Of a stretch of 64,000 nucleotides of DNA, positions 32,329 to 58,245 are shown in pieces. Every line of letters starts with the position of its first letter. Position 1 is the first letter of the stretch. The stretch is from an uncultured Gammaproteobacteria bacterium (GTDB lineage Bacteria > Patescibacteriota > Microgenomatia > UBA10105 > UBA927). Where the stretch lies: the NCBI GenBank assembly GCA_964394685.1, contig CAYMYO010000001.1, positions 64,040-128,039 on the forward strand, given 5' to 3'. The notes beneath the pieces were generated by a model, which was given only the letters and a program-made list of their open reading frames with translations, was not told the DNA's origin and searched no databases. Both the position numbers and the translations under genes were made by a program.

Positions 32329-33500
32329 TTAAACTCATCAAATCGACATTTTTAAAAGAAAAAGAAACAAAAACGAAACTTTGTGCGTTTATCAAAAAAG
32401 CAGAAATGCTCAGTATTGGTTCTGAGTGTCGAAAATTTGAACATAATTTTTCTGCATATCAGGGGCGAAAGCATTGTGTGTTTGTGAATAGTGGTAGTAG
32501 CGCTAATCTTGCCGTCATTCAGGTACTTCTAAATCTCGGAAAAATCAAAAAAGGCGATGAGGTAGGATTTTCAGCGTTGACCTGGTCGACCAATGTCATG
32601 CCGCTTATTCAGTTGGGTCTTAAACCTATTCCTATCGATTGCGAACTTGATACGCTCAATGTTTCATCAAGAACATTACAAGATGTCTTAAAGAAACATC
32701 ATATTAAAATGTTATTCCTTACAAATCTTCTTGGATTTTGTGATGATATAGATAAAATTACACAAATATGTAAGAAAAATCACATTTTATTAATTGAGGA
32801 TAATTGTGAATCTTTGGGAACGGTGTACAAAGGAAAAAAATTAGGAAATTTTGGTTTGGCAAGTACATTTTCTTTTTATGTCGGTCACCATATGTCGACG
32901 ATTGAAGGTGGAGCAGTGTTGACAAATGATACGGAGTTTGAAACCATGCTTCAGTTTGTACGTGCGCACGGGTGGGATAGAAATCTTACTGAGGATAAAC
33001 AATTAAAAATTCGCATAAAACACAATGTCAACGAAACTTTTTATAACCGGTATACCTTTTATGATTTGGGATATAACCTTCGTACTACGGAAATTCAAGG
33101 ATTCATTGGAAATACGCAGATACCGTATTTACCTGAAATAATCAGAAAAAGGGAGAAAAATTTTAAGCGGCTTGCAAAATCTATTTATGTCAATACGAAC
33201 AAATATTACCCGATCCGATACGACCATATTGATATCGTGTCAAATTTTGCAGTTCCTATTATTTGTCGTAGGCAAACAATTCGTGATGAACTTGTAAAAA
33301 AATGTGACGGAATTGTTGAAATCCGACCAATTGTTGGCGGTGATATGACCAAACAGCCGTTTTATGCAAAATATGTCAATGGAACTCACGAGCACAGCGT
33401 GACCAACGCAAGTATAGCTCACGATCAGGGTCTATATTTCGGCAATAATCCAGAACTCACAGAAAAAGAAATCCAGAAATTAATTTCAATATTTTCATGA
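32325..33500 (+). CDS. DegT/DnrJ/EryC1-family PLP-dependent enzyme (aminotransferase or dehydratase)
   Basis: The sequence VNSGSSANLAVIQVLL...GDEVGFSALTWSTNVMP...FSFYVGHHMSTIEGGAVLTND is DegT-like. The H-rich active-site region leaves an E1-type dehydratase possible. Confidence 0.7.
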   Translation: MIKLIKSTFLKEKETKTKLCAFIKKAEMLSIGSECRKFEHNFSAYQGRKHCVFVNSGSSANLAVIQVLLNLGKIKKGDEVGFSALTWSTNVMPLIQLGLKPIPIDCELDTLNVSSRTLQDVLKKHHIKMLFLTNLLGFCDDIDKITQICKKNHILLIEDNCESLGTVYKGKKLGNFGLASTFSFYVGHHMSTIEGGAVLTNDTEFETMLQFVRAHGWDRNLTEDKQLKIRIKHNVNETFYNRYTFYDLGYNLRTTEIQGFIGNTQIPYLPEIIRKREKNFKRLAKSIYVNTNKYYPIRYDHIDIVSNFAVPIICRRQTIRDELVKKCDGIVEIRPIVGGDMTKQPFYAKYVNGTHEHSVTNASIAHDQGLYFGNNPELTEKEIQKLISIFS

Positions 33501-34513
33501 AGCTTATTTCGATTATAATTGTTAATTGGAACGGTCTAAAATGGCTTTCTGATTGTTTTAGAACTATCTACGAGCAGGATCACGGCAGGTTTGAAATCAT
33601 TTTTGTTGATAATGCCTCTAAAGATAAATCTGTAGCGTGGGTGAAAGAACATTATCCAAAAACGAAAATATTAGTGAACAAGAAAAATCTTGGATTTGCT
33701 GATGCGAATAACGTTGGATATAGAAAAGCAAAGGGGAAGTATGTGCTGTTTCTAAATAACGATACAAGAGTAACGAAAACATTTCTGTCCGAGTTAGTTG
33801 ATGTTTTAGAACGTGATAAAACAATTGGAGGAGTTCAGAGTAAAATGTTGCTTATGGATCATCCGGATACGCACGATAGCGTCGGCGCGTTTCTTACGCC
33901 AACCGGATTTTTGTATCATTATGGGTTTGGTAGAAAAGATATTTCAAAATACAACAAAGAAATTGAACTATTCACAGCAAAAGGCGCGTGTATGATGTTT
34001 CGAAAAGATGTATTAGATGCGGTTGCAATATGTGGTGATATTTTCGATCCTGATTATTTTGCCTATTTTGAGGAATCTGATTTATGTCATCGGGTATGGC
34101 TTACAGGATACAGAATTGTATATGCCTATAGGTCGGTTATATATCACAAAATGGGTGCCACAAGCAGCAGCATGAATAATGCTTTTATTCAGTATCATTC
34201 ATTCAAAAATAGAATTCGGACATATATAAAGAATTTTGGAATTGTCCATCTCATGTTGATTTTGCCCGTTCATTTGTTGCTCTGTGAAGGCTTTTCAGCG
34301 TACTCTTTAATAAAAGGTCAATTTCAATTATTCTTTGCTATACAAAAGGCATTTTGGTGGAATATAGTGCATTTGGGAAAAACGATACAATTAAGACATA
34401 TTGTTCAAACGAAAATACGGAAAACGAGCGATAACGATTTGGCAAGAAAAATTGTATATAAGCCGTCACTATCGTATTATGTAGGTTTAGTGCGAGGTCG
34501 GATATATGAATAA
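33497..34513 (+). CDS. Glycosyltransferase family 2 (rhamnosyltransferase-like)
   Basis: The sequence ISIIIVNWNGLKWLSDCF...IFVDNASKDKS...NLGFADANNVG...FLNNDT is present, and a DxD lies in FEESDLCHR. Confidence 0.85.
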   Translation: MKLISIIIVNWNGLKWLSDCFRTIYEQDHGRFEIIFVDNASKDKSVAWVKEHYPKTKILVNKKNLGFADANNVGYRKAKGKYVLFLNNDTRVTKTFLSELVDVLERDKTIGGVQSKMLLMDHPDTHDSVGAFLTPTGFLYHYGFGRKDISKYNKEIELFTAKGACMMFRKDVLDAVAICGDIFDPDYFAYFEESDLCHRVWLTGYRIVYAYRSVIYHKMGATSSSMNNAFIQYHSFKNRIRTYIKNFGIVHLMLILPVHLLLCEGFSAYSLIKGQFQLFFAIQKAFWWNIVHLGKTIQLRHIVQTKIRKTSDNDLARKIVYKPSLSYYVGLVRGRIYE

Positions 34514-35300
34514 AACTAATAAATCAAATGACCTATCAATTCTTTTTCTTTCCTGCGACAAATATCAGGATTTATGGAAACCACTTTTTTATTGTGTCAA
34601 TAAATATTTTAATCAGAAAAAATATCCAATGTATCTCGGAAGCAATACAAAATCATATAAAGATAAAAACGTGACAACTTTACTTTCAGGACCGGATAAA
34701 GATTGGTCAACGAGTCTTCTTAATATTTTAGATCAAATACATACCCCATATATTTTTTTATGGCTTGACGATATGTTTCCGATAAAAAAGATCAACGTAA
34801 GTCGTTTTACGGACACGCTTGAATTTATGAAAAGTAAAAGGGCGGTGCATATTCATGCAGAGGCAACACCTGCACCGGATAAGATTCTTTCAAACGGTAC
34901 ATTCGGAGAATACAAAAAGGGCGCTCCATATCGAGCAACAGCGATGGGTTTTTGGAATGTACCAGCATTAAAAAAACTTCTTATTCCCGGCGAAAACCCG
35001 TGGAATTTTGAAATTATGGGATCATACAGAACTTCATATATGGACGGATTTTATTGTGCTATGAAGCCTGTTTTTTTGAAGATGAATGTCGTTGAGAAAG
35101 GAAAAATATTTAACGATGCCTATAGATATTGCAAAAAGCATAACATACCGCTTAATACGTCAAAACGTGAAGTCATTAGAAATACGCATTTTGTCAAAAG
35201 TGAACTGCAAAAATTGATGTTTAACACAGTGAAAAAAATTCCTTGGAAATTCAGAGTGTCAGTTATGAATGTGTTGCGAAAGATCGTGATAAGTTATTAG
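34506..35300 (+). CDS. Hypothetical protein, possible nucleotide-sugar transferase-like
   Basis: Its 264 aa are soluble. It carries LSILFLSCDKYQDLWKPLF and LWLDDMFP DxD-like segments. Its placement in the operon supports the call. The family is not recognised. Confidence 0.35.
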   Translation: MNKTNKSNDLSILFLSCDKYQDLWKPLFYCVNKYFNQKKYPMYLGSNTKSYKDKNVTTLLSGPDKDWSTSLLNILDQIHTPYIFLWLDDMFPIKKINVSRFTDTLEFMKSKRAVHIHAEATPAPDKILSNGTFGEYKKGAPYRATAMGFWNVPALKKLLIPGENPWNFEIMGSYRTSYMDGFYCAMKPVFLKMNVVEKGKIFNDAYRYCKKHNIPLNTSKREVIRNTHFVKSELQKLMFNTVKKIPWKFRVSVMNVLRKIVISY

Positions 35301-35314
35301 ATACGATATACTAT

Positions 35315-36313
35315 ATGAATATGAATTCATTTTGGAAAAATAAAAAAGTGCTTGTCACCGGCGGATCCGGATTTATCGGAAGCCATGTTGTAGAAAAGCT
35401 TGTAAGAATGGGAGCCAAGGTTAAGATATTGGATAGAATTTCAAATGGAAAATTGAAATATATTGAATATTTGAAAAGGGATATTGAAATAATCCATGGG
35501 GAATGCGTGGATCCGGATGCTTCTGTAAAAGCCTGTAATTCAATGGATGTCGTTATGAATTTGGCTGCTCATGTCGGAGGGATTGAATACAACAGGACAC
35601 ACCAGGCAACCATGCTGCATGACAATATAGTGATAGCAACATCGATGATAGAAGCTGCAAGAAAAGCAAAAGTCGAGCGATTTTTGGTTGTTTCATCAGC
35701 GTGTGTGTATCCGCATGATGCAATTGTGCCAACACCTGAATCGGAAGGAGTACGCGGTGAACCAGAACCAACAAACAGCGGGTATGGTTGGGCAAAACGG
35801 TATGCGGAACTCCTCGGTAAATTATATTCGGAAGAGTATGGTATGAAAGTTGGAATTGTGAGACCGTATAACGCCTACGGACCACGTGATCATTTTTCTC
35901 CAGAATCATCCCATGTTATACCGGCCCTCATTAAGCGGGTGATGGACGGAGAAAATCCGATTACAGTTTGGGGAAGCGGGAAACAAACGCGTGCGTTTCT
36001 TTATGTGGAAGATTTTACTGATGGTTTGATACAGGCTATCGAAGAATATCCTGTCCCGGATCCGATAAATATCGGAACCGATGAGGAGATATCAATTGGT
36101 GATTTAATAAAAATGATTATTAAAATCAGTGGAAAAAATTCTGATATACAATTCGATATAACCAAGCCTGATGGAAGTCCCAGACGAAATAGTGATAACA
36201 CAAAGGCAAAAGAAAAAACCGGATTTACTGCAAAGACGTCTCTTGCTGAAGGGTTACATAAAACAATCGAGTGGTATGCAAAAGAATATTTAGCTAATAG
36301 AAACACTACTTAA
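35315..36313 (+). CDS. GDP-L-fucose synthase (Fcl/WcaG)-like NAD(P)-dependent 3,5-epimerase/4-reductase
   Basis: The sequences VLVTGGSGFIGSH, SSACVYP, EPTNSGYGWAK and NAYGPRDHFSPESSHVIPALIKRV closely parallel the Fcl blocks SSCIYP, EPTNEPYAIAK and [23 protein letters not shown]. Confidence 0.7.
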   Translation: MNMNSFWKNKKVLVTGGSGFIGSHVVEKLVRMGAKVKILDRISNGKLKYIEYLKRDIEIIHGECVDPDASVKACNSMDVVMNLAAHVGGIEYNRTHQATMLHDNIVIATSMIEAARKAKVERFLVVSSACVYPHDAIVPTPESEGVRGEPEPTNSGYGWAKRYAELLGKLYSEEYGMKVGIVRPYNAYGPRDHFSPESSHVIPALIKRVMDGENPITVWGSGKQTRAFLYVEDFTDGLIQAIEEYPVPDPINIGTDEEISIGDLIKMIIKISGKNSDIQFDITKPDGSPRRNSDNTKAKEKTGFTAKTSLAEGLHKTIEWYAKEYLANRNTT

Positions 36314-38105
36314 TCTTTTTGTGAAGTAGATATGGGCCAAGGGCTAAATATTGTAACCCTGAATGTTCAAAAGCATAGAGAGCTTCTTTCGGGCCGAGGA
36401 CTACCGGATATCCATGTAGATTAAAAGATGTATTTAATACACCTCCTATACCTGTAATATTTTCAAATTCTTTAATAATTTTATAGTAAGTAGGATTCCA
36501 TGATTTTTCAATAAATTGTGGTCGCAACGTAAAGTCATATGGGTGCATAGCTGCGCGTAATTCTTTTATTGCCAGCTCAGTCGGGTCAAAACAGATGATC
36601 ATATATGGAGCTTCAATATGTTTTGGAATAATACAATAATCACGTGCTCTTTCACGTAATATCGAAGGTGCAAAAGGCATCCAGAAGTCCCTTTGCTTCA
36701 TTTGATCATTAATGATTTTAACAATATCTGTGTTTTGAGGATTGGCCAGGATGGATCTATTACCTAATGCTCTTGCCCCCCACTCCATTCGTCCAGAACA
36801 TCTTGCTACAACTTGACCTTTTGCCAGAAGTTTGGCGATTTGTTTTTCGATATTATTCGATTTTGTTATGGTGTATTTTTTCTTAATTTGTGCATCCGAA
36901 AGGTTATTAAATATTTCTTTATCTGAATATGCTGGGCCTAAATAAAGATTTTGTAGAGGTTTTACATATGGATAACCATATTTTGACTTAGTTACTTGTA
37001 AGTATGTAAGATAACACGATCCTATAACTAATGATTCATCTCCTGCACTAGGCATAAAAAATGCTTTTGATACACTCTTTAAATGCAAAATTTTATAATT
37101 GGCTTTCACGTTCATGAAAACTCCACCAGAGAAAATGAGTGTATGTAATCGTGTCTGTTTAGTGACATATGATACCCACTCGAGAATTCTTTCCTCAACT
37201 AATTTTTGAAAAGCTCCTGCCAATATATCAAATCGTACAAACGTCATTGATCGTTTTAAAAAGTAGAGAGTGTCTTGAGTATTGAATTTTGCATAAAAAC
37301 GGTATTTATTTTTTGGATCTAACGTAAGGATATCTTTTATTTTGTCATATAGTTTATCTACATCCTTCTCTTTAGCATACGGAGCAAGTCCCATAACCTT
37401 ATATTCATGCTCACCCGGTTTCATACCTAAAAATCTTGTGACATCATGATATATCCATCCAAGTGAGTTTTCTCTTGAAGTGGAAGCTATTCTCTGAAAG
37501 TGGTCTTTGTGAAATATGCTTACCGTGGAACATACGTTATCACCTTCTGCATCGAGCGTTAGCACAACTGACTTTTCTTGATTAAAAGGTGAACTATAAT
37601 AAGAGGCGGCAGCGTGAGATAGATGGTGTCCCGTGGTTACAATTTTATTAATTGGAACATGAAGATAGGAAGCGATATATTGTCTCTCTTTTTTTAGAAG
37701 ATATGCTCCGTACGTTTTGGTGGCAAGGTAGTAAAAAAAGGTACCTACCGGTCTTATTTTGGGAAATTTGTAGACCAGTCGACCCCACGAAGTTCTTATA
37801 CTGCTAACAAAGTTATAAAAGATATTCAGAATATGTACAGTAATTTCTTTTTTTGTTCCCTCAGAAAGACCTATAGGTGAACCAAATGATGAGGGTAGAG
37901 TGATAAAGTCCAAATCCTCAGTTGTAATTTTTGCATATTCAAGACACCACGCAATACTTTTTTGTGGTAGTCCCATATGGTTCTTTATTCCTGAGAAGCG
38001 TTCCTCACTAACACATGCAATTATCTCACCATTTTTAAGAATACAGGCCGTGGCATTATGACCGGTATGAATTCCTAAAATATGTATGTTTTTTGTTGTC
38101 AACAT
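36306..38105 (-). CDS. NodU/CmcH-family carbamoyltransferase
   Basis: The sequence ILGIHTGHNATACILKNGEIIACVSEERFSGIKNHMGLP is the Carbam_trans_N signature. The C-terminal domain NTSFNLHGYPVV is present and the length is about 600 aa. The track ORF extends to 38141, so the start is uncertain. Confidence 0.8.
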   Translation of the reverse strand: MLTTKNIHILGIHTGHNATACILKNGEIIACVSEERFSGIKNHMGLPQKSIAWCLEYAKITTEDLDFITLPSSFGSPIGLSEGTKKEITVHILNIFYNFVSSIRTSWGRLVYKFPKIRPVGTFFYYLATKTYGAYLLKKERQYIASYLHVPINKIVTTGHHLSHAAASYYSSPFNQEKSVVLTLDAEGDNVCSTVSIFHKDHFQRIASTSRENSLGWIYHDVTRFLGMKPGEHEYKVMGLAPYAKEKDVDKLYDKIKDILTLDPKNKYRFYAKFNTQDTLYFLKRSMTFVRFDILAGAFQKLVEERILEWVSYVTKQTRLHTLIFSGGVFMNVKANYKILHLKSVSKAFFMPSAGDESLVIGSCYLTYLQVTKSKYGYPYVKPLQNLYLGPAYSDKEIFNNLSDAQIKKKYTITKSNNIEKQIAKLLAKGQVVARCSGRMEWGARALGNRSILANPQNTDIVKIINDQMKQRDFWMPFAPSILRERARDYCIIPKHIEAPYMIICFDPTELAIKELRAAMHPYDFTLRPQFIEKSWNPTYYKIIKEFENITGIGGVLNTSFNLHGYPVVLGPKEALYAFEHSGLQYLALGPYLLHKKIK

Positions 38106-38967
38106 AGTGCGCATTATCCCGAAAGTTAAAGGGTTTGTCAATTTTTTATCAAATTGTGATAAGATAAAATTTACTGTGTTTACAAAAGAAACAAAAGTAA
38201 TTCGAATAGGCTCATCAAGCCTGTGTTATGCGATAATACCGTGGGATAGCGAATATTTACATAACACAACAATTGAAATTGAAAATTTTTCTGTCTCTTC
38301 TTTGGCAACTCTCAAAAAACTTGTTATTCAACTCAAACATTCACACAAACTAAAAAAAGGCGATCTATTGGTTAGTAAAATTCCACTTGCAGATTATGAG
38401 AAAATTAACACGCTTGATAATGTTGGGTTTTATTACATAGAACAAACAACTACTCTAGATATAGATTTATCAGCATGGAATGCAAGTTCGTTTATTTTTT
38501 CAAACAGTGACGAATACAAATTAATTCCAGCGGACCTATCTGATAAAAAGGAGATACGAGATATTGCAAAATCTATATTTACTGCTGACCGTTTTCATTT
38601 AGATGCACATATTCCAAAAGCAAGAGCGGATTATCGGTTTGAGATGTGGATAGAGAACTCTTTTCATAATTCAGACATTGTATATAAGTTTATTGATAAA
38701 AGAGGAATTATTATTGGATTTTTTATTGTCAATGAACAGAAGGAGTACGCTGAATTCCGTTTGGCCGGGTTACATTCTTTATACAAAGGTAAAGGCTTAG
38801 GGAAAATACTATATCATCATATGTATCAAATACTGAAAGTAAAAAAATTTAAATCGATAACTTCTGTTATTTCACTAAATAATATTCAAGTGCTTAATGT
38901 ATATATGTATTTAACTCACGCAAAATTTACACAGCCTTTAATTGTTATGCATAATGTGCTGTTATAA
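38086..38967 (+). CDS. Hypothetical protein with C-terminal GNAT-like acyl-CoA N-acyltransferase motif
   Basis: The C-terminal FRLAGLHSLYKGKGLGKILYHHMYQ fits GNAT motif A (Q/R-x-x-G-x-G/A). The start is uncertain, with an in-frame GTG near 38176. The gene is divergent from the carbamoyltransferase. Confidence 0.45.
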   Translation: MFFVVNIVRIIPKVKGFVNFLSNCDKIKFTVFTKETKVIRIGSSSLCYAIIPWDSEYLHNTTIEIENFSVSSLATLKKLVIQLKHSHKLKKGDLLVSKIPLADYEKINTLDNVGFYYIEQTTTLDIDLSAWNASSFIFSNSDEYKLIPADLSDKKEIRDIAKSIFTADRFHLDAHIPKARADYRFEMWIENSFHNSDIVYKFIDKRGIIIGFFIVNEQKEYAEFRLAGLHSLYKGKGLGKILYHHMYQILKVKKFKSITSVISLNNIQVLNVYMYLTHAKFTQPLIVMHNVLL

Positions 38968-38973
38968 CCAGTG

Positions 38974-39948
38974 TTATTTTTGAGCCTGAACATATACCCA
39001 TTCCGTAGTAAATGAGGTGTTATCTGCAAGCGGATTTTTTTCTTTTAACTCATCAAAAAGCATATGTGAGGCCTGTATAATTATTTTATCTCTATCGCGT
39101 TCTTCTTCTGTAGTTGGATCTTTTCCCCCAATTTCCGGTAATATACCTGCCTGCAAACGTCTGACTCTTAAAAAGGATAGCCAATCTATATATAAAACTT
39201 TTATTTGTTTATAACTACTCTGTATATTTCTAAAACCGTTATCTTTTAGCGCATCTAGATAGTATCCGATTGGTCTTGGATCAGGAAAGACAAATTTTCT
39301 TTGTGAAAGTCCTTCCTGTAATCTTATAGTAATCCCTTTTTTATATTGTCTGTATTTTTTATCTGTTTTGATTATGGATATGCCAAAATCATGTACCCGA
39401 TGGACCGAATCATCAATCATTAAGAGATCTTTCTTTCTGTCTTTTCGTTTAATATTTCCGCTTTGAAATGTAAATATCCCTTCAGGTTTGAGTGCGCGAT
39501 AGATGCCCGCGAATGTCTCTGATATATTTGGAATGAGGTGTACTGTATTGGCGGCAATAACATGATGTGCTGTTTGTTCCCCAATGATTTCATCAAGTGT
39601 TTTATATCGTCCCTGATTTTTTTCTAATAACAAACAGGTAACTTGAGGATTTGTATGAAACAAGCCGTAAGCGTTACCTAGCCAAGATGGAGAATTATCA
39701 ACAAGAAATAGCGAAAATTTTTGAGTCATGTGCTGAAGAAGATATTCTGCTGAACTTCCTGTTCCTGCACCAAAATCAACAACGACATCATCAACCTTGA
39801 CCATTTTTTTAATCAGTCGGATTATTTCATAAATATTATCTATGTGCCAAGACGCTTTGATAACTGCGGCGTGGTACGCTAACGCACCTGAAGACGTTGG
39901 TTTACTTGGCTTCCAAGATGTGTATAAATGCGGTGATTGCTTTCTCAT
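38974..39948 (-). CDS. Class I SAM-dependent methyltransferase
   Basis: Motif I VVVDFGAGTGSSAEYL is present. The post-I acidic residue is in FLVDNS. The protein is 324 aa. Confidence 0.75.
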   Translation of the reverse strand: MRKQSPHLYTSWKPSKPTSSGALAYHAAVIKASWHIDNIYEIIRLIKKMVKVDDVVVDFGAGTGSSAEYLLQHMTQKFSLFLVDNSPSWLGNAYGLFHTNPQVTCLLLEKNQGRYKTLDEIIGEQTAHHVIAANTVHLIPNISETFAGIYRALKPEGIFTFQSGNIKRKDRKKDLLMIDDSVHRVHDFGISIIKTDKKYRQYKKGITIRLQEGLSQRKFVFPDPRPIGYYLDALKDNGFRNIQSSYKQIKVLYIDWLSFLRVRRLQAGILPEIGGKDPTTEEERDRDKIIIQASHMLFDELKEKNPLADNTSFTTEWVYVQAQK

Positions 39949-39972
39949 GGTATCTATACTATATTTTACACA

Positions 39973-41154
39973 ATGAAAGACCCCGTGTACATCATTGATG
40001 CAAAACGAACTCCGATAGGAAAATATGGTGGTAGCCTTATTGATGTGTCTGCAACAGAATTGGCGTCGATTATTATTAAAGCATTATTAACAACAAATCC
40101 ATCTGTAACCAATTATGTAAATGAGGTGATTTTGGGAAATGTGCTTTCAGCGGGACTTGGACAAAACCCAGCCAGAATAGCTGCGTATACAAGCGGAATT
40201 GACAAGAAAGTCCCTTCGTGTACGGTTAATAAAATTTGCGGTTCTTCACTAAAAAGTATCATTATGGGTTTGCAATCCATATTAATAGATGATTCGCAAG
40301 TAATTATTGCAGGTGGTATGGAAAATATGAGTCGTTGTCCGTATCTATTAGATAATTACCGTTTCGGAGCAAAAATTGGGCATCAAACAGTGCGGGATGC
40401 GATGATCTATGATGGATTATTTTGCAGTCTTATCGGAGAACCTATGGGATTAACTGCTGAACATATTGCTAAAAAATATAAAATTACTAGAAAAGAACAA
40501 GATACGTATGCAGTGAATAGTCATTCAAAAGCACTAAAGGCCATTACTGATAATTCATTTTCAAAACAAATTATTCCGGTTCCCATAACAAAAGGAAAAA
40601 CCACCTTGATGTTTTCTGTCGATGAACAACCGAGGAAAGAGACAAGCTTGGAAAAACTTTCTCAACTCCGACCAGGATTCCTTGTTAAAGGTACCATCAC
40701 CGCAGGAAATGCGTGTTCACTGAATGATGGCGCAGCAGCAGTTGTTTTAACCTCTGCAGATTTTGCACACAAACATCGTATTAAACCAATGGCAAAAATA
40801 GTTCAATATGCCTCTATTGGGCTTGATCCCAAATTTATGGGACTTGGGGGATATTATGCGGCAAAACTGTGCTTGGCTAAAGCAAAATTGACAACAAAAA
40901 ATATAGATCTTTGGGAAATAAATGAGGCGTTTGCATGTCAAAGCATTGCAGTTCAACAATTGCTTGATATTGATGAACGGATCATTAATGTTAATGGCGG
41001 AGCAATTGCATTAGGTCATCCAATTGGAGCAAGTGGAGCACGAATTTTAACAACGCTTCTTTATGAATTAAAAAAACAATCGAAACAATTTGGTATGGCA
41101 AGTTTGTGTATTGGTGGTGGCCAAGGAATTGCAATGTTGGTTGAGAACCTATGA
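39973..41154 (+). CDS. Acetyl-CoA C-acetyltransferase (thiolase II)
   Basis: The N-terminus VYIIDAKRTPIGKYGGSL, the active-site-Cys region NKICGSSLKSI, the C-terminal GGAIALGHPIGASGARIL, and CIGGGQG are all present. Confidence 0.85.
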   Translation: MKDPVYIIDAKRTPIGKYGGSLIDVSATELASIIIKALLTTNPSVTNYVNEVILGNVLSAGLGQNPARIAAYTSGIDKKVPSCTVNKICGSSLKSIIMGLQSILIDDSQVIIAGGMENMSRCPYLLDNYRFGAKIGHQTVRDAMIYDGLFCSLIGEPMGLTAEHIAKKYKITRKEQDTYAVNSHSKALKAITDNSFSKQIIPVPITKGKTTLMFSVDEQPRKETSLEKLSQLRPGFLVKGTITAGNACSLNDGAAAVVLTSADFAHKHRIKPMAKIVQYASIGLDPKFMGLGGYYAAKLCLAKAKLTTKNIDLWEINEAFACQSIAVQQLLDIDERIINVNGGAIALGHPIGASGARILTTLLYELKKQSKQFGMASLCIGGGQGIAMLVENL

Positions 41155-41894
41155 AACGCTTTGAGGGTAAGATAGCATTGGTAACTGGCTCATCCCGAGG
41201 GCTTGGTAAAGCGATAGCCTTTGAGCTTGCGTCGTCAGGCGCAACGCTTATTCTTCATGCTACAAAAAAATCTTCAGTCGCGATAAGCACGTTTCATGAA
41301 ATACGGAAAATTTCCCCAAAAAGCAAATTATATTATGCAAATTTCATGCACCCTAAAAAAATTGTTGATATGGCTCGTAGTGTTCAAAAAGATTTTACAC
41401 ATATCGATATGTTAATAAATAACGCCGGTGTAATAAAAAGAAGCACGTTTCTCAATCTAACTGATAAAGATTGGGAGACTGTTATGAAAGTAAATATTTA
41501 TGGAATGTATCATATAACAAAGCAATTGTTACCAGCCATCATCCAACGTGGCAAAGGAAGAATAATAAATATGTCTTCCATATGCGGTCTGGTGGGTGAA
41601 TATGGATTGACGAGTTATTGTGCGTCAAAAGCAGCAATCATTGGTTTTACAAAGTCTCTTTCTAAAGAAGTAGCAAAATACGCCATAACAGTTAATGCGA
41701 TATGTCCGGGATTTACCGATGAAGGGATGTCAAATACTATGTCTAATAAAATATTAGAGCAAAGTATTCAATCCATACCTCTTCGTAGGATCGGAACAAA
41801 GGAAGAAGTCGCAAAACTTGTTGCTTTCCTATGTTCTGAAGATGCTGGATATATCACGGGTCAAGCGATTAATATAAATGGAGGTTTAATATGA
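41151..41894 (+). CDS. SDR-family 3-oxoacyl reductase (FabG / acetoacetyl-CoA reductase-like)
   Basis: The sequence KIALVTGSSRGLGKAIA is present, the NNAG motif is in NNAGVIKRS, and the catalytic Y-x3-K is in YCASKAA. The start overlaps the upstream stop in ATGA fashion. Confidence 0.85.
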   Translation: MKRFEGKIALVTGSSRGLGKAIAFELASSGATLILHATKKSSVAISTFHEIRKISPKSKLYYANFMHPKKIVDMARSVQKDFTHIDMLINNAGVIKRSTFLNLTDKDWETVMKVNIYGMYHITKQLLPAIIQRGKGRIINMSSICGLVGEYGLTSYCASKAAIIGFTKSLSKEVAKYAITVNAICPGFTDEGMSNTMSNKILEQSIQSIPLRRIGTKEEVAKLVAFLCSEDAGYITGQAININGGLI

Positions 41895-42829
41895 AAATTC
41901 GTAATAGTTTTCCTCATCACTTACGATACGACTTTGATCGCACCGCTGAAGAAATTTGGGATATTTTTACTTTAACGAAACGTTTAAAAAAGAAACTTCA
42001 AGAAGGTAAACCACATGAATTGTTAAAAGGAAAATCACTCGCCATGATTTTTGCAAAACCATCAACTCGAACGCGTGTGAGTTTTGAGGTTGGAATGACG
42101 CAGTTAGGTGGTCACGCGCTATTTCTTGGCCCCAATGATCTCCAACTATCTCGAGGTGAAACCATCGGTGACACTGCTCGAGTACTCTCCCGATATGTTG
42201 ACGGTATTATGGCGCGTGTATTTGCTCAAAAGGAAATTGAAGAATTAGCAGCAAATGCAATAGTGCCAATAATAAACGGTTTATCCGATATGTATCACCC
42301 ATGCCAAGCATTGACGGATATTTTTACTGTTTTTGAAAAACGAGAAATATTAAAAAAACTTACCATGTGTTTTATTGGAGATGGAGATAATAATGTCACA
42401 AATTCTCTCATGCTCCTTTCCGCAAGACTTGGTATACATTTAACTGTGGCTGCTCCGAAACAATATACACCATCAAAATTTATTCTAGACATGGCGTATA
42501 CAGAGGCAAAAAAAACAGGAGCACGTATAAGCGTAACGAATGATCCAGTAGCAGCGGTCAAGTACGCTGATATCATTCATACTGATGTTTGGGTAAGTAT
42601 GGGAAGAACAGATGGCGAGATGCGCAAAAAAATACTTTTTCCCTATCAGATAAATAGATCTTTGTTAAAAAAGGCACCAGCACACGCATTGGTGATGCAT
42701 TGTTTACCGGCTCATCGGGGTGAGGAAATAACTGACGATGTTATTGATGGACCACAGTCAATTGTTTTTGATCAAGCTGAAAATCGGCTTCATGTACAAA
42801 AGGCCATAATGGCTTTATGTATGAAATGA
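41891..42829 (+). CDS. Ornithine carbamoyltransferase (OTCase-family)
   Basis: The STRTR carbamoyl-phosphate motif, HPCQ, the ornithine-type DVWVSMG (DxxxSMG) loop, and HCLPA are all present. The start overlaps the SDR stop by 4 bp. Confidence 0.85.
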   Translation: MKIRNSFPHHLRYDFDRTAEEIWDIFTLTKRLKKKLQEGKPHELLKGKSLAMIFAKPSTRTRVSFEVGMTQLGGHALFLGPNDLQLSRGETIGDTARVLSRYVDGIMARVFAQKEIEELAANAIVPIINGLSDMYHPCQALTDIFTVFEKREILKKLTMCFIGDGDNNVTNSLMLLSARLGIHLTVAAPKQYTPSKFILDMAYTEAKKTGARISVTNDPVAAVKYADIIHTDVWVSMGRTDGEMRKKILFPYQINRSLLKKAPAHALVMHCLPAHRGEEITDDVIDGPQSIVFDQAENRLHVQKAIMALCMK

Positions 42830-42848: not shown

Positions 42849-43964
42849 ATGCAAAAAAGACGAGTGTTTATTTTTATCGGTACCACTGCTGAACTAATTA
42901 AATTGGCACCGGTTATTCAGCAGTTAAATAAACGGAAAGTCAAATTTACGGTAATTGCTTCGCGACAAAACGATATTCGTTTTGATGAATTCCTTTCTAC
43001 CATCGGTAAGTTAGATATTATCTATGCAGTTACTCCAAAAAGCGCAGATTCTTCTATATTGCAATTTATTTCATGGGGAATACGAACATTCTTTTCGTTG
43101 TTGATAGGGTTGAAGCATCAGTTTAAAGGTTTGAATAAATTGAATTCATATTTCATTGTTCACGGAGATACTGTTTCCTCGCTTATGGGGTCTTTAGTTG
43201 CCAAAACATACGGATTGACTCTTGTTCACATTGAATCTGGTTTACGATCGTTTAATTTTTGGGAACCGTTTCCTGAAGAGATATGCAGATATATAGTGTC
43301 AAAACTTGCTGATATTCATTTTTGCCCTAATGAATGGTGTGTAAATAATTTGAAACATGTAAACGGAGAAAAAATAGATACAAAACAAAATACCCTAATA
43401 GAAACATTTTTGAGTGCTGTCAAAAACGAAAGTCATAATCCGGTGGTAGATAATATACAGAAACAACATAAAAAATATTATGTGCTTGTTGTACATAGAC
43501 AAGAACATATTTTTTTTGTAATTAAACAGATGCAACAAATTCTCTCATATATTTTTCGCTCTATCCCAAAAAATCTACAATGCATTTTTTTAGTTCATGA
43601 TCAATCAACGCAATTTATTACAGCATTAGATTTGATTATCCCTAAAGAAACTAAAGACAATATGATAAAAATTGGACGTTTACCGTATGGAGATTTTATT
43701 AAATTATTGCAAGGATCAGAGTTTGTCATTACAGATGGAGGAAGCAATCAAGAAGAATTATATTATATGGGAAAACCGTGCCTCATTCTTCGGAATTACA
43801 CAGAACGTATCGAAGGATTACAACGAAATGTTGTTTTAAGCAAATTACATATGCCTGTAATAAGACATTTTTTACATAATTATGTACAATATAAGAAACC
43901 TCCCATCAAGTTCACAAAGAAACCATCATCGATAATAGTAGATTATCTATATAAACAAATATGA
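42849..43964 (+). CDS. UDP-N-acetylglucosamine 2-epimerase (WecB/NeuC-family)
   Basis: The sequence IGTTAELIKLAPV corresponds to GTRPEAIKMAP. The sequence HGDTVSSLMGSLVAKTYGLTLVHIESGLRSFN...PFPEEICRYIVSKLADIHFCPNE parallels the WecB catalytic blocks. Confidence 0.8.
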   Translation: MQKRRVFIFIGTTAELIKLAPVIQQLNKRKVKFTVIASRQNDIRFDEFLSTIGKLDIIYAVTPKSADSSILQFISWGIRTFFSLLIGLKHQFKGLNKLNSYFIVHGDTVSSLMGSLVAKTYGLTLVHIESGLRSFNFWEPFPEEICRYIVSKLADIHFCPNEWCVNNLKHVNGEKIDTKQNTLIETFLSAVKNESHNPVVDNIQKQHKKYYVLVVHRQEHIFFVIKQMQQILSYIFRSIPKNLQCIFLVHDQSTQFITALDLIIPKETKDNMIKIGRLPYGDFIKLLQGSEFVITDGGSNQEELYYMGKPCLILRNYTERIEGLQRNVVLSKLHMPVIRHFLHNYVQYKKPPIKFTKKPSSIIVDYLYKQI

Positions 43965-45097
43965 ACATTCCTTTTAATAAACCACATCTTGCTGGAAAAG
44001 AAATGTCGTATATTCGAGATGCTCATAGGCGCAGACAACTAGCTGGGGATGGATTTTATACAAAAAAATGTCAACGATGGATGCAAGATAAGTTTGGATG
44101 TAAACAGAGCCTATTAACACATTCTGCAACAGCAGCTTTGGAGATGATAGCTATACTTTCTCAAATAAAACCCGGAGATGAAGTAATTATGCCTTCATAT
44201 ACATTCGTGAGCACCGCGAACGCATTCGTTCTTCGCGGTGGTGTTCCAGTATTTGTTGATATTCGCTATGACACAATAAATATTAATGAACAGATTATTG
44301 AACAAGCAATTACAAAAAAGACTAAAGCTATAGTTGTTGTTCATTATGCAGGAGTTGGTTGTGAAATGGATAGCATACGATCGATTGCTAAAAAACATAA
44401 TTTACTTGTACTTGAAGACGCAGCTCATGCGTTTTTAGCCAAATACAAGAATGAATTTTTGGGCACAGTAAGTGATTTGGCTGCTTTTAGTTTTCATGAG
44501 ACAAAGAACATTATATCGGGTGAAGGCGGGACTATATTTATTAATAATCCAAAATTTATTGAACGAGCAACAATAATTAGAGAAAAAGGTACAAATAGAA
44601 GTAAATTTTTTTTAGGTCTTGTAGATAAATATACGTGGGTAGATATCGGCTCTTCTTATTTACCGGGTGAAATAATTGCTTCATTTTTGATGGCTCAGCT
44701 GGAAAAAGCAACAAGCATTACAAAAAAAAGAGTTTTATTATGGAATAGGTATCATAAAGAATTGAAAGATTTAGAAGATCGCGAATTAATCCGCAGACCC
44801 ATCATGCCGAAATATATCGATCACAATGCTCATTTGTATTATATTTTGACAAAAAACAAAATACAGAGAATAGAACTTGCTCAACATCTTAAAGATAATG
44901 GTATTCTTGCGGTAACGCATTATGTTCCATTACATTCTTCTCCAGCTGGAAAAAAATTTGGCAGATATGTTGGAAGCATGAATGTTACTGATTTAGTTGC
45001 CGATACTTTGCTCCGACTACCTCTTTTTTACGACTTGCGCAGCGATGAGCAGGCAAAGGTACTTCATTGTATTCATGATTATTATAAACATATATAA
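43961..45097 (+). CDS. dTDP-4-amino-4,6-dideoxy-sugar transaminase (WecE/ArnB-like, DegT family)
   Basis: The sequence FNKPHLAGKEMSYIRDAH...GDGFYTKKCQRWMQDKFG...THSATAALEMIA...GDEVIMPSYTFVSTANAFVLRGGVPVFVDIR is almost block-for-block WecE. Confidence 0.85.
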   Translation: MNIPFNKPHLAGKEMSYIRDAHRRRQLAGDGFYTKKCQRWMQDKFGCKQSLLTHSATAALEMIAILSQIKPGDEVIMPSYTFVSTANAFVLRGGVPVFVDIRYDTININEQIIEQAITKKTKAIVVVHYAGVGCEMDSIRSIAKKHNLLVLEDAAHAFLAKYKNEFLGTVSDLAAFSFHETKNIISGEGGTIFINNPKFIERATIIREKGTNRSKFFLGLVDKYTWVDIGSSYLPGEIIASFLMAQLEKATSITKKRVLLWNRYHKELKDLEDRELIRRPIMPKYIDHNAHLYYILTKNKIQRIELAQHLKDNGILAVTHYVPLHSSPAGKKFGRYVGSMNVTDLVADTLLRLPLFYDLRSDEQAKVLHCIHDYYKHI

Positions 45098-45106
45098 TGC
45101 ATAACA

Positions 45107-46165
45107 ATGGCTTTAGTCAGCATTATTATCGCAACGTTCAATTCCGCCCGTACTCTTCCTAAAGTGCTAGAGGCAATTAACAAGCAAACATACCCGAAAA
45201 AAAATATCGAAATATTAATTATTGATGGAGGATCTACAGATAGCACTGTATCTATTGCAAAACGATATGATTGTAAAATAATTATGAATCCCAAAGTCGA
45301 GCCTAATTATGCTAAATATTTAGGACTTCAAAATGCAAAAGGGCTATATGTTCTTTATATTGATCATGATGAAGTTTTTACAAATATCGATAGTATCAAA
45401 ACAAGAGTTGATATTTTTAAAAAGCATCACAACGTTAAAGCAATAACAGGAAATGGATATAGTAATCCGCCCGGACTCCACATCATTAATCGTTATATTA
45501 ACGAATTTGGAGATCCTTTTTCTTTCTTTATCTATCGATTATCAAAGAATTCAAATTTTTTCCTACCAACTATGTACAAACGGTTTAAAGTAACATTTGA
45601 TACAGAATTATATTCTATTTTTGATCTTTCCACTTCTTCCGAAATAGCACTTATAGAATTGGGTGCCGGAGGAGGGATGATTGATAGATCATATGTAAAA
45701 AAGAGTTTTGACAACACTGTTACTCAATATCAATTAGTTCCTCATTTGTTACATCTTTTATGTCCTAAATATCCGTTTCTTGGGATTGTTAAAAACGATT
45801 CGTTATATCATTATTCATCTGACAATTTTGGAGGTTACATGCAAAAGATTATTTGGCGAATAAAAAATAATATTTTTCATACCGATACCCTAGGTGCATC
45901 TGGATTTACCGGAAGAGAAGAATTCCAGACGCCAATTTCTCGTTTAAAAAAACTTTTATTTCTTCCCTATGCATTTTCTATTTTATTTCCTTGTATAGAT
46001 GCTGCATATCTCATGGTTACTCGAAAGGATGCATCATATTGCATTCACGTTCCATTGACTGTCATAACCGCAAGTATTATCGTATATTATTATTTTTTGA
46101 AAACATTGGGAATTAAGTCGACAATGATGAGTTACGATGGATCTACAAAAGCATATGAAAAGTAA
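45107..46165 (+). CDS. Glycosyltransferase family 2
   Basis: The sequence VSIIIATFNSARTLPKVLEAINKQTYPKKNIEILIIDGGSTDSTVSIAKRY is GT2-like. It is a paralog of 31342-32328. Confidence 0.8.
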   Translation: MALVSIIIATFNSARTLPKVLEAINKQTYPKKNIEILIIDGGSTDSTVSIAKRYDCKIIMNPKVEPNYAKYLGLQNAKGLYVLYIDHDEVFTNIDSIKTRVDIFKKHHNVKAITGNGYSNPPGLHIINRYINEFGDPFSFFIYRLSKNSNFFLPTMYKRFKVTFDTELYSIFDLSTSSEIALIELGAGGGMIDRSYVKKSFDNTVTQYQLVPHLLHLLCPKYPFLGIVKNDSLYHYSSDNFGGYMQKIIWRIKNNIFHTDTLGASGFTGREEFQTPISRLKKLLFLPYAFSILFPCIDAAYLMVTRKDASYCIHVPLTVITASIIVYYYFLKTLGIKSTMMSYDGSTKAYEK

Positions 46166-49287: not shown

Positions 49288-50213
49288 AATGTCCGGTTTG
49301 TTTTAGTACTACATGGGAAAATCTTTTTCCATCAAAGGATAGGTTATACTATTTCCCAGGTTTATTTCATACTATTTGTTGCAACAGATGTGGTATATGG
49401 AGTCTTGACCCATTTTTAGACGAACGTGAAGTACGTAAATACTATCCAAAAACGTATTATTCGTACCAAAAAAATACAAAGCCCGGTATTTTTTGGCGCT
49501 TACGCTCCTATATGATAAAAACAAGTATTTCTATGAAACTCGTTCATCGCTGTTTGAGGTCAATTATTAAAATTCCGGCGATCCCTTCATATGTAGAATA
49601 CGGTAAAATTCTTGATATCGGATGTGGTTCAGGTGATACATTATTCCAACTAAAGAATATTGGCTGGGATGTATACGGATTAGATATCGATAAGTCTGCT
49701 ATACAAGTAGCTCGTAAACGGGGATTAAAAAAGGTAACGTTTGGATCATATAAAACAATGGGTTTGTATCAGGATAACTATTTTGATGTTATTCGACTGT
49801 ATCACGTGATAGAACATTTAGATAATCCGGACGCGTTACTTGTACTTGCGTATCAAAAACTCAAAAAGGGAGGAGAATTAATTATCGGCACTCCGAATGC
49901 AAAGAGCTTCGCAGCAAAGATTTTTAAACAATATTGGTATAATCTTGATTGCCCGAGACACCTGTATGTCTTTAATCCTAAACAACTGATATCGCTTCTT
50001 AAAAGAACAGGGTTTACAAATATAAAAATATCGTTTTTTTCTGCAGGAGGGATATTGGGGTCAATTCAGTATTTTTTACATGACACGTTACGAATCAATA
50101 TTGATTTAATAAATCGACCAATGCTGCTATTTCTACTCTATCCTCTTGAGAGGATTTTAGATATATTTGGAATGGGGGATGTATTTGTAATTAGTGCAAA
50201 AAAAAGCATATGA
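49284..50213 (+). CDS. SAM-dependent methyltransferase with N-terminal Cys4 zinc-ribbon
   Basis: The start MKCPVCF at 49284 overlaps the upstream TGA in ATGA fashion. The zinc-ribbon is CPVCF...CCNRCG. The MTase fold is ILDIGCGSGDTLFQL...GLDIDKSAI...LYHVIEHLDNP...LKKGGELIIGTPN. Confidence 0.7.
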   Translation: MKCPVCFSTTWENLFPSKDRLYYFPGLFHTICCNRCGIWSLDPFLDEREVRKYYPKTYYSYQKNTKPGIFWRLRSYMIKTSISMKLVHRCLRSIIKIPAIPSYVEYGKILDIGCGSGDTLFQLKNIGWDVYGLDIDKSAIQVARKRGLKKVTFGSYKTMGLYQDNYFDVIRLYHVIEHLDNPDALLVLAYQKLKKGGELIIGTPNAKSFAAKIFKQYWYNLDCPRHLYVFNPKQLISLLKRTGFTNIKISFFSAGGILGSIQYFLHDTLRINIDLINRPMLLFLLYPLERILDIFGMGDVFVISAKKSI

Positions 50214-57900: not shown

Positions 57901-58245
57901 ATGATTCGTATTATTACATCCTCAATATCACTGAAAGAATTGAAAGAATCGGCTAAAAATGGTTTAGGAACACTCGTTAAAGCGGTAGTAGATATCGAAC
58001 GAAAACTCATGGCAATAGAAGGAGCCATGCATGCTGATGAAGAACAAATACTTCTTACTGATGGATCGAAACAACAGAATCTTTGGGGTATAAATATTTA
58101 TCCTGATCTTCCGATTGCTGATCGTATTGAATTTGATTCAATGATAAATATTCGTCCTTCACAAGGGAATCCAAGCAGATCAGTAGAAAATCCTAACATT
58201 CAAAAGGAAATTCAAAGAATTGTAAACAGCATAATTACTGAATAA
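57901..58245 (+). CDS. Hypothetical protein (114 aa)
   Basis: Its presence as a complete ORF, its tight spacing with the next ORF, and its coding-like composition support the call. No family was recognised. Confidence 0.4.
   Translation: MIRIITSSISLKELKESAKNGLGTLVKAVVDIERKLMAIEGAMHADEEQILLTDGSKQQNLWGINIYPDLPIADRIEFDSMINIRPSQGNPSRSVENPNIQKEIQRIVNSIITE

Follow-up and report, generated by a model that had tools for sequence, protein, structure and literature searches.

How does a bacterium with a small genome come to carry a thiolase, a ketoreductase and an ornithine carbamoyltransferase (OTCase) among its glycan genes, and what would these enzymes make there? The question is posed by a 64,000-nucleotide stretch of contig CAYMYO010000001.1 (the window), whose host is a Microgenomates-type bacterium of the Candidate Phyla Radiation (CPR). 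At 36306-42829, a sequence-only reading of this DNA had placed six open reading frames (ORFs) as a sugar-decoration island: a NodU-type carbamoyltransferase, a GNAT-like acyltransferase, an S-adenosylmethionine (SAM)-dependent methyltransferase, a thiolase, an acetoacetyl-coenzyme A (CoA)-type reductase and an OTCase. We read the ORF boundaries from the 64-kb window, checked its proteins against Pfam and NCBIfam, and compared neighbourhoods of homologues, which are given L-numbers (L003, L007 and so on); the window proteins were mapped onto the loci of GNAT homologues by tblastn. The ORF list, Pfam and NCBIfam returned all six ORFs with exactly the extents and domains first assigned to them. 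The gene identities, folds, motifs and synteny described here are established, and on its gene content the island is best described as two juxtaposed, putative decoration modules within a mosaic CPR glycan locus. We rate as fairly probable a combined model in which a C4 hydroxyacyl group made by the first module would be placed on an amino sugar, and the carbamoyltransferase of the second would be fed by the OTCase.

A cassette for a predicted C4 hydroxyacyl group

Four genes form the first module, which we refer to as module A or the acyl cassette:

38176-38967, + strand: two-domain WecD-like GNAT N-acyltransferase of 263 amino acids (aa), read from a GTG codon; database protein P0001 has the identical sequence
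38974-39948, - strand: class I SAM-dependent methyltransferase with a helical cap, 324 aa (Pfam Methyltransf_12/25/11)
39973-41154, + strand: biosynthetic (type II) acetyl-CoA C-acetyltransferase (thiolase), 393 aa, scoring 452 bits with TIGR01930 against a cut-off of 241
41151-41894, + strand: FabG/PhaB-type short-chain dehydrogenase/reductase (SDR), a 3-ketoacyl reductase of 247 aa, whose start overlaps the thiolase stop by 4 bp

The thiolase ORF spans 39937-41154, and its start is most likely the ATG at 39973, as called in L001, L009, L011 and L021. Its N- and C-terminal domains were recognized at E values of 4.6e-88 and 4.3e-47, acetoacetyl-CoA thiolases lead its matches in the PDB, among them 1DLU, a biosynthetic thiolase of the Zoogloea type, and its catalytic Cys-His-Cys motifs (NKICGSSL, GHPIGASG and CIGGGQG) align with acetoacetyl-CoA thiolase structures; it scores under the PhaA and BktB equivalog cut-offs. 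The SDR carries the motifs TGSSRGLG (TGxxxGxG), NNAG and YxxxK. Its best NCBIfam matches are models of 3-oxoacyl-acyl carrier protein (ACP) reductase and acetoacetyl-CoA reductase, with most equivalogs below cut-off and one FabG subfamily model above it, and among PDB entries it resembles FabG, (3R)-hydroxyacyl-CoA dehydrogenase and acetoacetyl-CoA reductases about equally. Whether its substrate class is CoA or ACP is not assignable by sequence alone; the thiolase partner and the absence of an ACP gene argue for CoA. Neighbouring genes of the region are -8 to 70 bp apart, with 4-bp overlaps at both the thiolase/SDR and the SDR/OTCase junctions, which leaves no room for an ACP gene.

For the GNAT, we moved the start from the ORF beginning at 38086 to the GTG at 38176; its homologues have 262 aa. 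The protein matches Acetyltransf_1 of Pfam at 21.5 bits (cut-off 20.7), and its best NCBIfam match, below cut-off, is WecD/RffC. A profile of the family found as its best PDB match WecD (2FS5), a deoxythymidine diphosphate (dTDP)-fucosamine acetyltransferase, and an AlphaFold (AF2) model of the protein, with a mean confidence (pLDDT) of 92.8, returned the same enzyme (2fs5_A) over its full length as the top Foldseek match, with a target-normalised TM-score of 0.81 and an E value of 1.7e-14. The sequence-only reading had allowed that this ORF might not be a real gene. That it is one is borne out by the WecD fold and by 37 homologues, down to 38% identity, which share about 40 invariant positions and a conserved G-x-GLGK CoA-binding motif. 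The GNAT gene co-occurs with a WecE gene in L007, L009, L011, L017, L018-L020 and L021; distant relatives (29-30% identity) in Verrucomicrobiota and cyanobacteria also have WecE genes within a few kb, so that the family shows a consistent link with the chemistry of 4-amino-4,6-dideoxyhexoses. In the clade at 42% identity (L003, L014, L015 and L016), the GNAT gene lies between two genes for family 2 glycosyltransferases (GT2); in L003, GNAT and SDR are separated by an AbiEii toxin gene.

The GNAT, methyltransferase (on the opposite strand), thiolase and SDR genes are kept as a unit in L009/L010, L011/L012, L013 (Daviesbacteria) and L021, with identities to the window proteins of 61-77%, 62-83%, 72-76% and 70-72%, respectively. 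The combination is found in five independent Microgenomates loci. Near it there is usually a gene for a WecE-type aminotransferase, another for a GT2 (about 350 aa) and a third for a WecB-like Epimerase_2 protein. In L007/L008, where GNAT (61%) and WecE (70%) persist, an archaeal-type acetoacetyl-CoA thiolase (NF053570, 367 bits) stands in for thiolase II, and the place of the SDR is taken by an Hbd-type 3-hydroxybutyryl-CoA dehydrogenase. That a non-homologous pair with the same two reactions stands beside the same acyltransferase argues that the product of the cassette is 3-hydroxybutyryl-CoA; the stereochemistry of the 3-hydroxybutanoyl group would probably be (S) in L007/L008 and (R) in the window. 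In L104, the methyltransferase (58%), thiolase (48%) and SDR (46%) occur with a left-handed beta-helix (LbH) acyltransferase and a polysaccharide deacetylase, and no GNAT is present. Three kinds of swap are seen: of GNAT and LbH acyltransferases, of SDR and Hbd-type reductases, and of thiolase II and archaeal-type thiolase.

Three further sugar genes lie near the cassette:

42849-43964, + strand: WecB-like Epimerase_2 protein, 371 aa (170 bits against a WecB cut-off of 210)
43961-45097, + strand: WecE-type dTDP-4-keto-6-deoxyhexose 4-aminotransferase, 378 aa (NF008687, 574 bits against 375; TIGR02379, 556 against 435)
45107-46165, + strand: GT2 glycosyltransferase, 352 aa (Pfam PF00535), always paired with the WecE gene

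The sugar aminotransferases cited earlier in support of an amino sugar are thus real, and further DegT genes were found at 28766 and 32325. WecE orthologues with 62-71% identity lie beside the GNAT gene in L007, L009, L011 and L017. Synteny of the 352-aa GT2 extends to L007, L009, L011, L013 and L021, and orthologues of the Epimerase_2 protein are present in these five loci and in L022; in L013 the neighbouring aminotransferase comes from another DegT subfamily. We propose that the WecE-type enzyme supplies the amine acceptor, and regard the 352-aa GT2 as the candidate transferase for the modified sugar.

These gene contents point to N-(3-hydroxybutanoyl)ation of a dTDP-4-amino-4,6-dideoxyhexose by the cassette with WecE and the GT2 as partners. 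The thiolase would join two acetyl-CoA into acetoacetyl-CoA, which the FabG/PhaB-type SDR would reduce, presumably to (R)-3-hydroxybutanoyl-CoA. WecE would aminate dTDP-4-keto-6-deoxyglucose at C4, the WecD-fold GNAT, which we predict to use 3-hydroxybutanoyl or a related C4 acyl group with the dTDP-4-amino-4,6-dideoxyhexose as acceptor, would transfer the C4 hydroxyacyl group onto the sugar amine, and the GT2 would install the modified sugar. The methyltransferase would add one methyl group, either to a sugar hydroxyl, as in the 2-O-methylation by VioM of Pseudomonas syringae, or to the acyl chain. The substrates, the order of reduction and transfer, the stereochemistry and the final glycan we infer. 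The idea that thiolase and reductase make 3-hydroxybutanoyl-CoA for N-acylation of an amino sugar by the GNAT goes back to the sequence-only reading and gains support from the WecD fold, the recurrent unit and the paired replacement in L007; we consider an N-(C4 3-hydroxyacyl) amino sugar quite likely to be the product.

At the corresponding place in L009, L011, L013 and L021, the methyltransferase has orthologues with 62-83% identity. Its family numbers 323 matches, mostly at more than 50% identity, in CPR bacteria and one Woesearchaeota genome, with a mean column identity of 59%. The structural model (pLDDT 93.2) matches only generic small-molecule methyltransferases, for example Coq5, OxaG, TmtA, JHAMT, BioC and RebM. 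Two contexts outside the cassette (L104:7001-7975 and L106:2661-3644) both include an SDR. In L106 the SDR directly follows the methyltransferase, and a thiolase fragment and an enoyl-CoA hydratase gene lie nearby. These two contexts raise the possibility that the methyltransferase methylates the acyl chain rather than the sugar.

Several observations weigh against the proposed pathway. The GNAT scores far under the WecD equivalog cut-offs (NF008212, 38.8 against 219; TIGR02382, 22.9 against 195), and its acyl specificity is not readable from sequence. The clade at 42% identity has no thiolase gene within 10 kb; it keeps a related SDR (46-47% identical) 1-2 kb away, and there acetoacetyl-CoA could come from elsewhere in the genome. 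RmlA and RmlB, which make the dTDP-4-keto-6-deoxyglucose substrate, were not found in the 64-kb window, where the product of 56943-57890 resembles a dehydratase only weakly (145 bits, cut-off 365). Finally, the role of the methyltransferase, and possibly the exact acyl structure, is uncertain: L106, a Woesearchaeota contig, has the methyltransferase with no sugar genes in view over the roughly 10 kb that are visible.

We weighed three other explanations of the cassette. Thiolase and reductase might serve central metabolism (mevalonate, polyhydroxybutyrate or butyrate fermentation) and lie in a glycan locus by chance; a mevalonate pathway, which starts from acetoacetyl-CoA, is reported in most Microgenomates (PMC6107057), and the window shows only 64 kb of the genome. 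However, CPR mevalonate pathways use an archaeal-type acetoacetyl-CoA thiolase and not thiolase II (PMC6107057), thiolase and SDR are coupled in translation and in every case have glycan genes on either side, and no genes for type II fatty-acid synthesis, polyhydroxyalkanoate synthase (PhaC), 3-hydroxy-3-methylglutaryl-CoA synthase or reductase (HMGS, HMGR) occur in the window or the syntenic loci, nor do crotonase or Bcd in the window or five syntenic loci. With no partner genes in view and a thiolase of the wrong type for CPR mevalonate, we rejected a mevalonate, polyhydroxybutyrate or butyrate role, and a chance placement seems very improbable. The GNAT might instead be a plain WecD-like N-acetyltransferase, with thiolase, SDR and methyltransferase making some other envelope product (an O-acyl substituent, a lipid-like anchor or a small metabolite): its only family-level similarity is to acetyltransferases, its acyl specificity is unpredictable, and its 42% clade stands apart from any nearby thiolase. 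Yet the four genes are conserved as a unit, the GNAT accompanies either pair of 3-hydroxybutyryl-CoA-forming enzymes (L007), even the 42% clade retains its SDR, and in L104 another N/O-acyltransferase fold stands in for the GNAT beside methyltransferase, thiolase and SDR, which makes this explanation improbable. The third alternative leaves the amide in place and moves the methyl group: the substrate of the methyltransferase would be the C4 thioester, with acetoacetyl-CoA methylated at carbon or the 3-hydroxyl at oxygen, to give 2-methyl-3-hydroxybutanoyl or 3-methoxybutanoyl, and the sugar itself would not be methylated by this enzyme. The methyltransferase does travel with thiolase and SDR whichever acyltransferase is present (GNAT in the window, LbH in L104), and in L106 it adjoins an SDR near thiolase and enoyl-CoA hydratase genes with no sugar genes in view. 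It has weak sequence matches to acyl-thioester and polyketide enzymes (BioC, E 4.5e-5; PsoF), and its fold neighbours include C-methyltransferases, fatty-acid O-methyltransferases and a methyltransferase of a type II fatty-acid synthesis gene cluster. Against this, VioM of P. syringae methylates the sugar 2-hydroxyl, L007 has GNAT, thiolase and dehydrogenase but not this methyltransferase, and L106 was seen over only about 10 kb; we consider acyl methylation in this sense unlikely.

Carbamoyltransferase and ornithine carbamoyltransferase

The second module, module B, comprises a carbamoyltransferase, separated from the GNAT by a short intergenic region, and the cassette is followed by the OTCase:

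36306-38105, - strand: NodU/CmcH/TobZ-family O-carbamoyltransferase, about 599 aa, with N-terminal Kae1-like and C-terminal YrdC-like domains
38106-38175, no strand: divergent intergenic region of 61-70 bp between carbamoyltransferase and GNAT, which follows from the reassigned starts
41891-42829, + strand: canonical OTCase, 312 aa, whose start overlaps the SDR stop by 4 bp

The carbamoyltransferase ORF spans 36306-38141, with a start at the ATG at 38105 or 38114 or, alternatively, the TTG at 38141. Carbam_trans_N and Carbam_trans_C were recognized at E values of 2.5e-37 and 1.2e-55, and both domains are complete (PF02543, 1-344 of 346; PF16861, 1-170 of 170). The protein aligns over its full length with PDB entry 7XB6, TobZ, NovN and GdmN, and does not reach the NodU equivalog (69 against 1000 bits). 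Enzymes of the CmcH/NodU/TobZ type O-carbamoylate hydroxyls, often on sugars, using carbamoyl phosphate and ATP (PMC6022934). Orthologues lie in the glycan loci L011, L013, L021 and L022, and a metagenome scan with an alignment of the carbamoyltransferase returned 80 relatives (38-63% identity), mostly among glycan genes. O-carbamoylation, as proposed when the gene was first described, holds at the family level, and we think it likely that this enzyme O-carbamoylates a glycan sugar; it would do so on a sugar hydroxyl with carbamoyl phosphate and ATP.

The OTCase, which the sequence-only reading left unexplained, is probably the most interesting piece of the island. It scores 411 bits with TIGR00658 (cut-off 281) and carries all four motifs, STRTR, HPCQ, DVWVSMG and HCLP, corresponding to the carbamoyl phosphate and ornithine binding motifs STRTR, HPxQ, DxxxSMG and HCLP (PMC6022934). 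We considered the protein as a novel amino-sugar N-carbamoyltransferase and rejected this, the ornithine-binding motifs being intact. Its gene lies inside a one-directional run of glycan genes and is translationally coupled to the SDR. Catabolic transcarbamylases require a carbamoyl-phosphate-consuming partner, and a neighbourhood with carbamate kinase and a YgeW-type enzyme is the signature context of those that generate carbamoyl phosphate (PMC6022934); an 81%-identical OTCase in L023 lies beside carbamate kinase and a YgeW-type transcarbamylase. We suggest that the OTCase would phosphorolyse citrulline to provide carbamoyl phosphate for the carbamoyltransferase, and that the carbamoyltransferase, which consumes ATP, would take the part of carbamate kinase in drawing this unfavourable reaction onward. 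That direction of the OTCase we infer, and its role as carbamoyl phosphate supplier, proposed from motifs and gene context, is tentative, at somewhat less than an even chance.

Comparison of related loci bears on the pairing. In L021 the OTCase is 86% identical, the gene order is that of the window, and the N-terminus of a carbamoyltransferase lies at the contig end. In L022 the OTCase is 83% identical, the acyl cassette is missing, and carbamoyltransferase and OTCase are divergent immediate neighbours; after the OTCase come the same Epimerase_2 protein, GT2, 705-aa membrane protein and methyltransferase. Set against this pair, the acyl cassette of the window gives the impression of having been inserted between carbamoyltransferase and OTCase. 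Beyond the carbamoyltransferase, on the side away from the OTCase, L022:2437-8144 encodes DegT, WbqC, GH130-like, ATP-grasp, metallophosphoesterase, PglD-like acetyltransferase and methyltransferase proteins; this set has the look of a different cassette for decorating an amino sugar, an alternative at the same locus. Among the more distant relatives, an OTCase-family gene is the immediate upstream neighbour of the carbamoyltransferase on the same strand in L038 (4566-5492), and in L094 (16261-17211) one lies 4.5 kb downstream of the carbamoyltransferase in a glycosyltransferase operon with overlapping stops and starts. Both proteins pass the OTCase equivalog model.

The supply role has to be set against a rival explanation, to which we give an even chance: that the OTCase is an ordinary metabolic enzyme, of arginine deiminase/citrulline catabolism for ATP or of arginine synthesis, and that carbamoyl phosphate comes from elsewhere. 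The protein is fully canonical, OTCases are widespread in CPR genomes, and the close relative in L023 sits in its carbamate kinase/YgeW cluster without glycan genes. Moreover, L011 and L013 have the carbamoyltransferase with no OTCase within 10 kb, and 78 of the 80 more distant carbamoyltransferase loci lack one. The two pairings (L038 and L094, with about 644 kb of flanks over the 80 loci) are, by count alone, close to chance and not clearly above it. Other findings also tell against a supplying OTCase. The L038 and L094 proteins carry SLRTR and HDMP, not STRTR and HCLP, and may make up a separate transcarbamylase subfamily that acts on neither ornithine nor citrulline; the adjacency common to the window, L021 and L022 does not count as independent evidence, because the three are closely related; and neither arginine deiminase nor any citrulline source is visible in the 64-kb window. 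What speaks against a purely metabolic enzyme is its place: its start overlaps the SDR stop, all surrounding genes are glycan genes, and the adjacency to the carbamoyltransferase is kept with the cassette (window, L021) or without it (L022). Unlike in the L023 context, no arcA or arcC adjoins the OTCase. OTCase-family genes are, in addition, embedded in the carbamoyltransferase-containing glycan operons of L038 and L094. For OTCase coupled to an O-carbamoyltransferase, we found no description among the papers searched.

Comparison with known decoration systems

The closest known system is the viosamine island of P. syringae pv. tabaci, which comprises the vioA aminotransferase, vioB acyltransferase, vioS 3-ketoacyl-ACP synthase III (KAS III), acp, vioR 3-oxoacyl reductase, vioM methyltransferase and vioT transferase genes; it yields dTDP-N-(3-hydroxy-1-oxobutyl)-2-O-methylviosamine, found as D-Qui4N(3-hydroxy-1-oxobutyl)2Me on flagellin, and has homologues in the flagellin glycosylation island of P. 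aeruginosa PAK (PMC3927599). The window shares its logic: a DegT-family 4-aminotransferase, an N-acyltransferase, an enzyme forming a C4 beta-ketoacyl thioester, an SDR, a SAM-dependent methyltransferase and a dedicated glycosyltransferase. The label 'unusual' that the sequence-only reading gave to such a combination was therefore too strong, since the flagellin islands of P. syringae and P. aeruginosa already join aminotransferase, N-acyltransferase, beta-ketoacyl-forming enzyme, ketoreductase and methyltransferase (PMC3927599). The likeness to the Vio proteins is one of described functions. Whereas the viosamine island uses KAS III and ACP, the window has a CoA-dependent thiolase II and no ACP, and by analogy its cassette points to a CoA-based, ACP-free counterpart of that island. 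VioB, with 213 aa, is annotated as a dTDP-viosamine acetyltransferase, in contrast to the two-domain WecD-like GNAT of the window. We take VioB to have the LbH fold. As the aminotransferase of the window scores as WecE, its sugar may be 4-amino-4-deoxyfucose (Fuc4N) in place of viosamine. The window also differs in its CPR host and in the added carbamoyltransferase and OTCase.

A second relative is the enterobacterial common antigen (ECA) of E. coli, with its WecE, WecD/RffC and WecB enzymes. The WecE of the window passes the equivalog, the GNAT shares the two-domain WecD fold, and a WecB-like Epimerase_2 protein adjoins; but the GNAT is only about 15% identical to WecD and is linked to 3-hydroxybutyryl-CoA-forming enzymes rather than to acetyl-CoA use, and no WecC was seen in the window. 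As GNAT and epimerase fail the WecD and WecB models, the locus resembles ECA in parts and is not an ECA cluster.

O-antigen or capsule clusters of E. coli O103, Salmonella O55, Hafnia and Acinetobacter predict a product of the type expected here, a dTDP-amino-dideoxyhexose N-acylated with 3-hydroxybutanoate. These clusters are described with only the 3-hydroxybutanoyl transferase (FdhC, QdhC); their acyl donor presumably comes from host metabolism, whereas the window cassette encodes the donor pathway, thiolase and reductase, within itself. FdhC and QdhC acylate C3, and the predicted position in the window is C4. Both (R)- and (S)-3-hydroxybutanoyl amides are known on Qui4N, Fuc3N and Qui3N. 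The antABCD operon of Bacillus anthracis makes anthrose, 2-O-methyl-4-(3-hydroxy-3-methylbutanamido)-4,6-dideoxyglucose, and obtains the acyl donor from methylcrotonyl-CoA by way of an enoyl-CoA hydratase. Anthrose shares with the predicted sugar a 4-amino-4,6-dideoxyhexose, a short 3-hydroxyacyl amide, a methyl group and an acyl-CoA-forming enzyme encoded in the operon; the donor route differs, as it has no thiolase and reductase. On the carbamoyl side, the carbamoyltransferase has the complete TobZ architecture of the CmcH/NodU/TobZ enzymes. Compared with the catabolic transcarbamylase/carbamate kinase systems (PMC6022934), the OTCase of the window is canonical and has close relatives with carbamate kinase, but its proposed partner is an O-carbamoyltransferase instead. 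We found no direct precedent in the literature for a thiolase in O-antigen clusters or for glycan decoration in CPR bacteria.

The surrounding locus and its meaning

Domain annotation of its ORFs identifies the whole 64-kb window as a glycan locus, and the best explanation is a surface-glycan locus that spans at least 60 kb and is built as a mosaic of decoration modules. The G+C content of the window is 36%, the closest named relatives of the GNAT belong to Candidatus Daviesbacteria and that of the OTCase to Gottesmanbacteria, and CPR-typical families are present (DUF5674 and arrays of YfhO and PMT_2); these features point to the Microgenomates-type CPR host. At least nine GT-C-like membrane proteins (YfhO, PMT_2, PTPS_related) follow one another in the first 23 kb; this unusually long paralogue run, at 380-22813, also includes similar multi-pass proteins without matches, and suggests an extensive capacity for protein or polymer glycosylation in an organism with a small genome. 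The window further encodes a flippase-like Polysacc_synt protein, GT2 and family 4 (GT4) glycosyltransferases, GalE, three DegT aminotransferases, an LbH acetyltransferase and a GFO/IDH/MocA oxidoreductase. No tRNA gene or Rfam element was matched in the window, and a search of its ORFs for carbamate kinase, carbamoyl phosphate synthetase and arcA was likewise negative.

One further sub-module accompanies the carbamoyltransferase on its upstream side:

33497-36313, + strand: GT2 (338 aa), a 264-aa protein and a nucleoside diphosphate (NDP)-sugar epimerase/reductase-like SDR

The order carbamoyltransferase, 264-aa protein, GT2 is kept in L011, and the 264-aa protein and GT2 also occur together in L007. 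The 264-aa protein (34506-35300, + strand) is soluble, has no Pfam match and comes after the 338-aa GT2 in every case; its counterparts in L007 and L011 share 56-61% identity with it, and that of L011 directly adjoins the carbamoyltransferase. A 101-aa ORF at 36001-36306 (- strand) has no matches and overlaps the gene at 35243-36313; we rejected it as a real gene, and it is probably spurious.

Several multi-pass membrane proteins of the window have no family match. Five of them, on the + strand at 46137-48293, 50210-52408, 52369-53454, 53459-55090 and 55081-56937, have 6-12 predicted transmembrane segments each. The 718-aa and 732-aa members have counterparts, 42-45% identical, downstream of the WecE-GT2 pair in L011 and L017, and genes of the same size are present in L021 and L022. 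The five proteins may be unrecognised GT-C enzymes, polymerases or ligases. Also among the sugar genes are a four-helix-bundle protein of family TIGR02436 (59808-60242, - strand) and a DUF5674 protein (57901-58245, + strand).

To our knowledge, almost nothing is known of the cell-surface chemistry of CPR/Patescibacteria, which are episymbionts dependent on surface contact with their hosts. The locus predicts a concrete decorated sugar, a 4-(3-hydroxyacylamido)-4,6-dideoxyhexose that would also bear methyl and carbamoyl groups, and it shows a route to short hydroxyacyl decorations without fatty-acid synthesis, the donor pathway being carried in a swappable cassette. In its fullest form, which we hold to be rather doubtful, the proposal is that a CPR bacterium with a reduced genome would be self-sufficient through two recruited pieces of central metabolism: an ACP-free, portable cassette of thiolase II, ketoreductase and methyltransferase that solely feeds a sugar N-acyltransferase with a C4 hydroxyacyl-CoA, possibly methyl-branched or O-methylated, and an OTCase run backwards, from citrulline and phosphate, as the dedicated source of carbamoyl phosphate for a TobZ-type enzyme. 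If the OTCase does feed the carbamoyltransferase, this would give catabolic transcarbamylases a physiological role that is new, and would provide an annotation rule for 'orphan' OTCases in genomes without arginine and pyrimidine synthesis.

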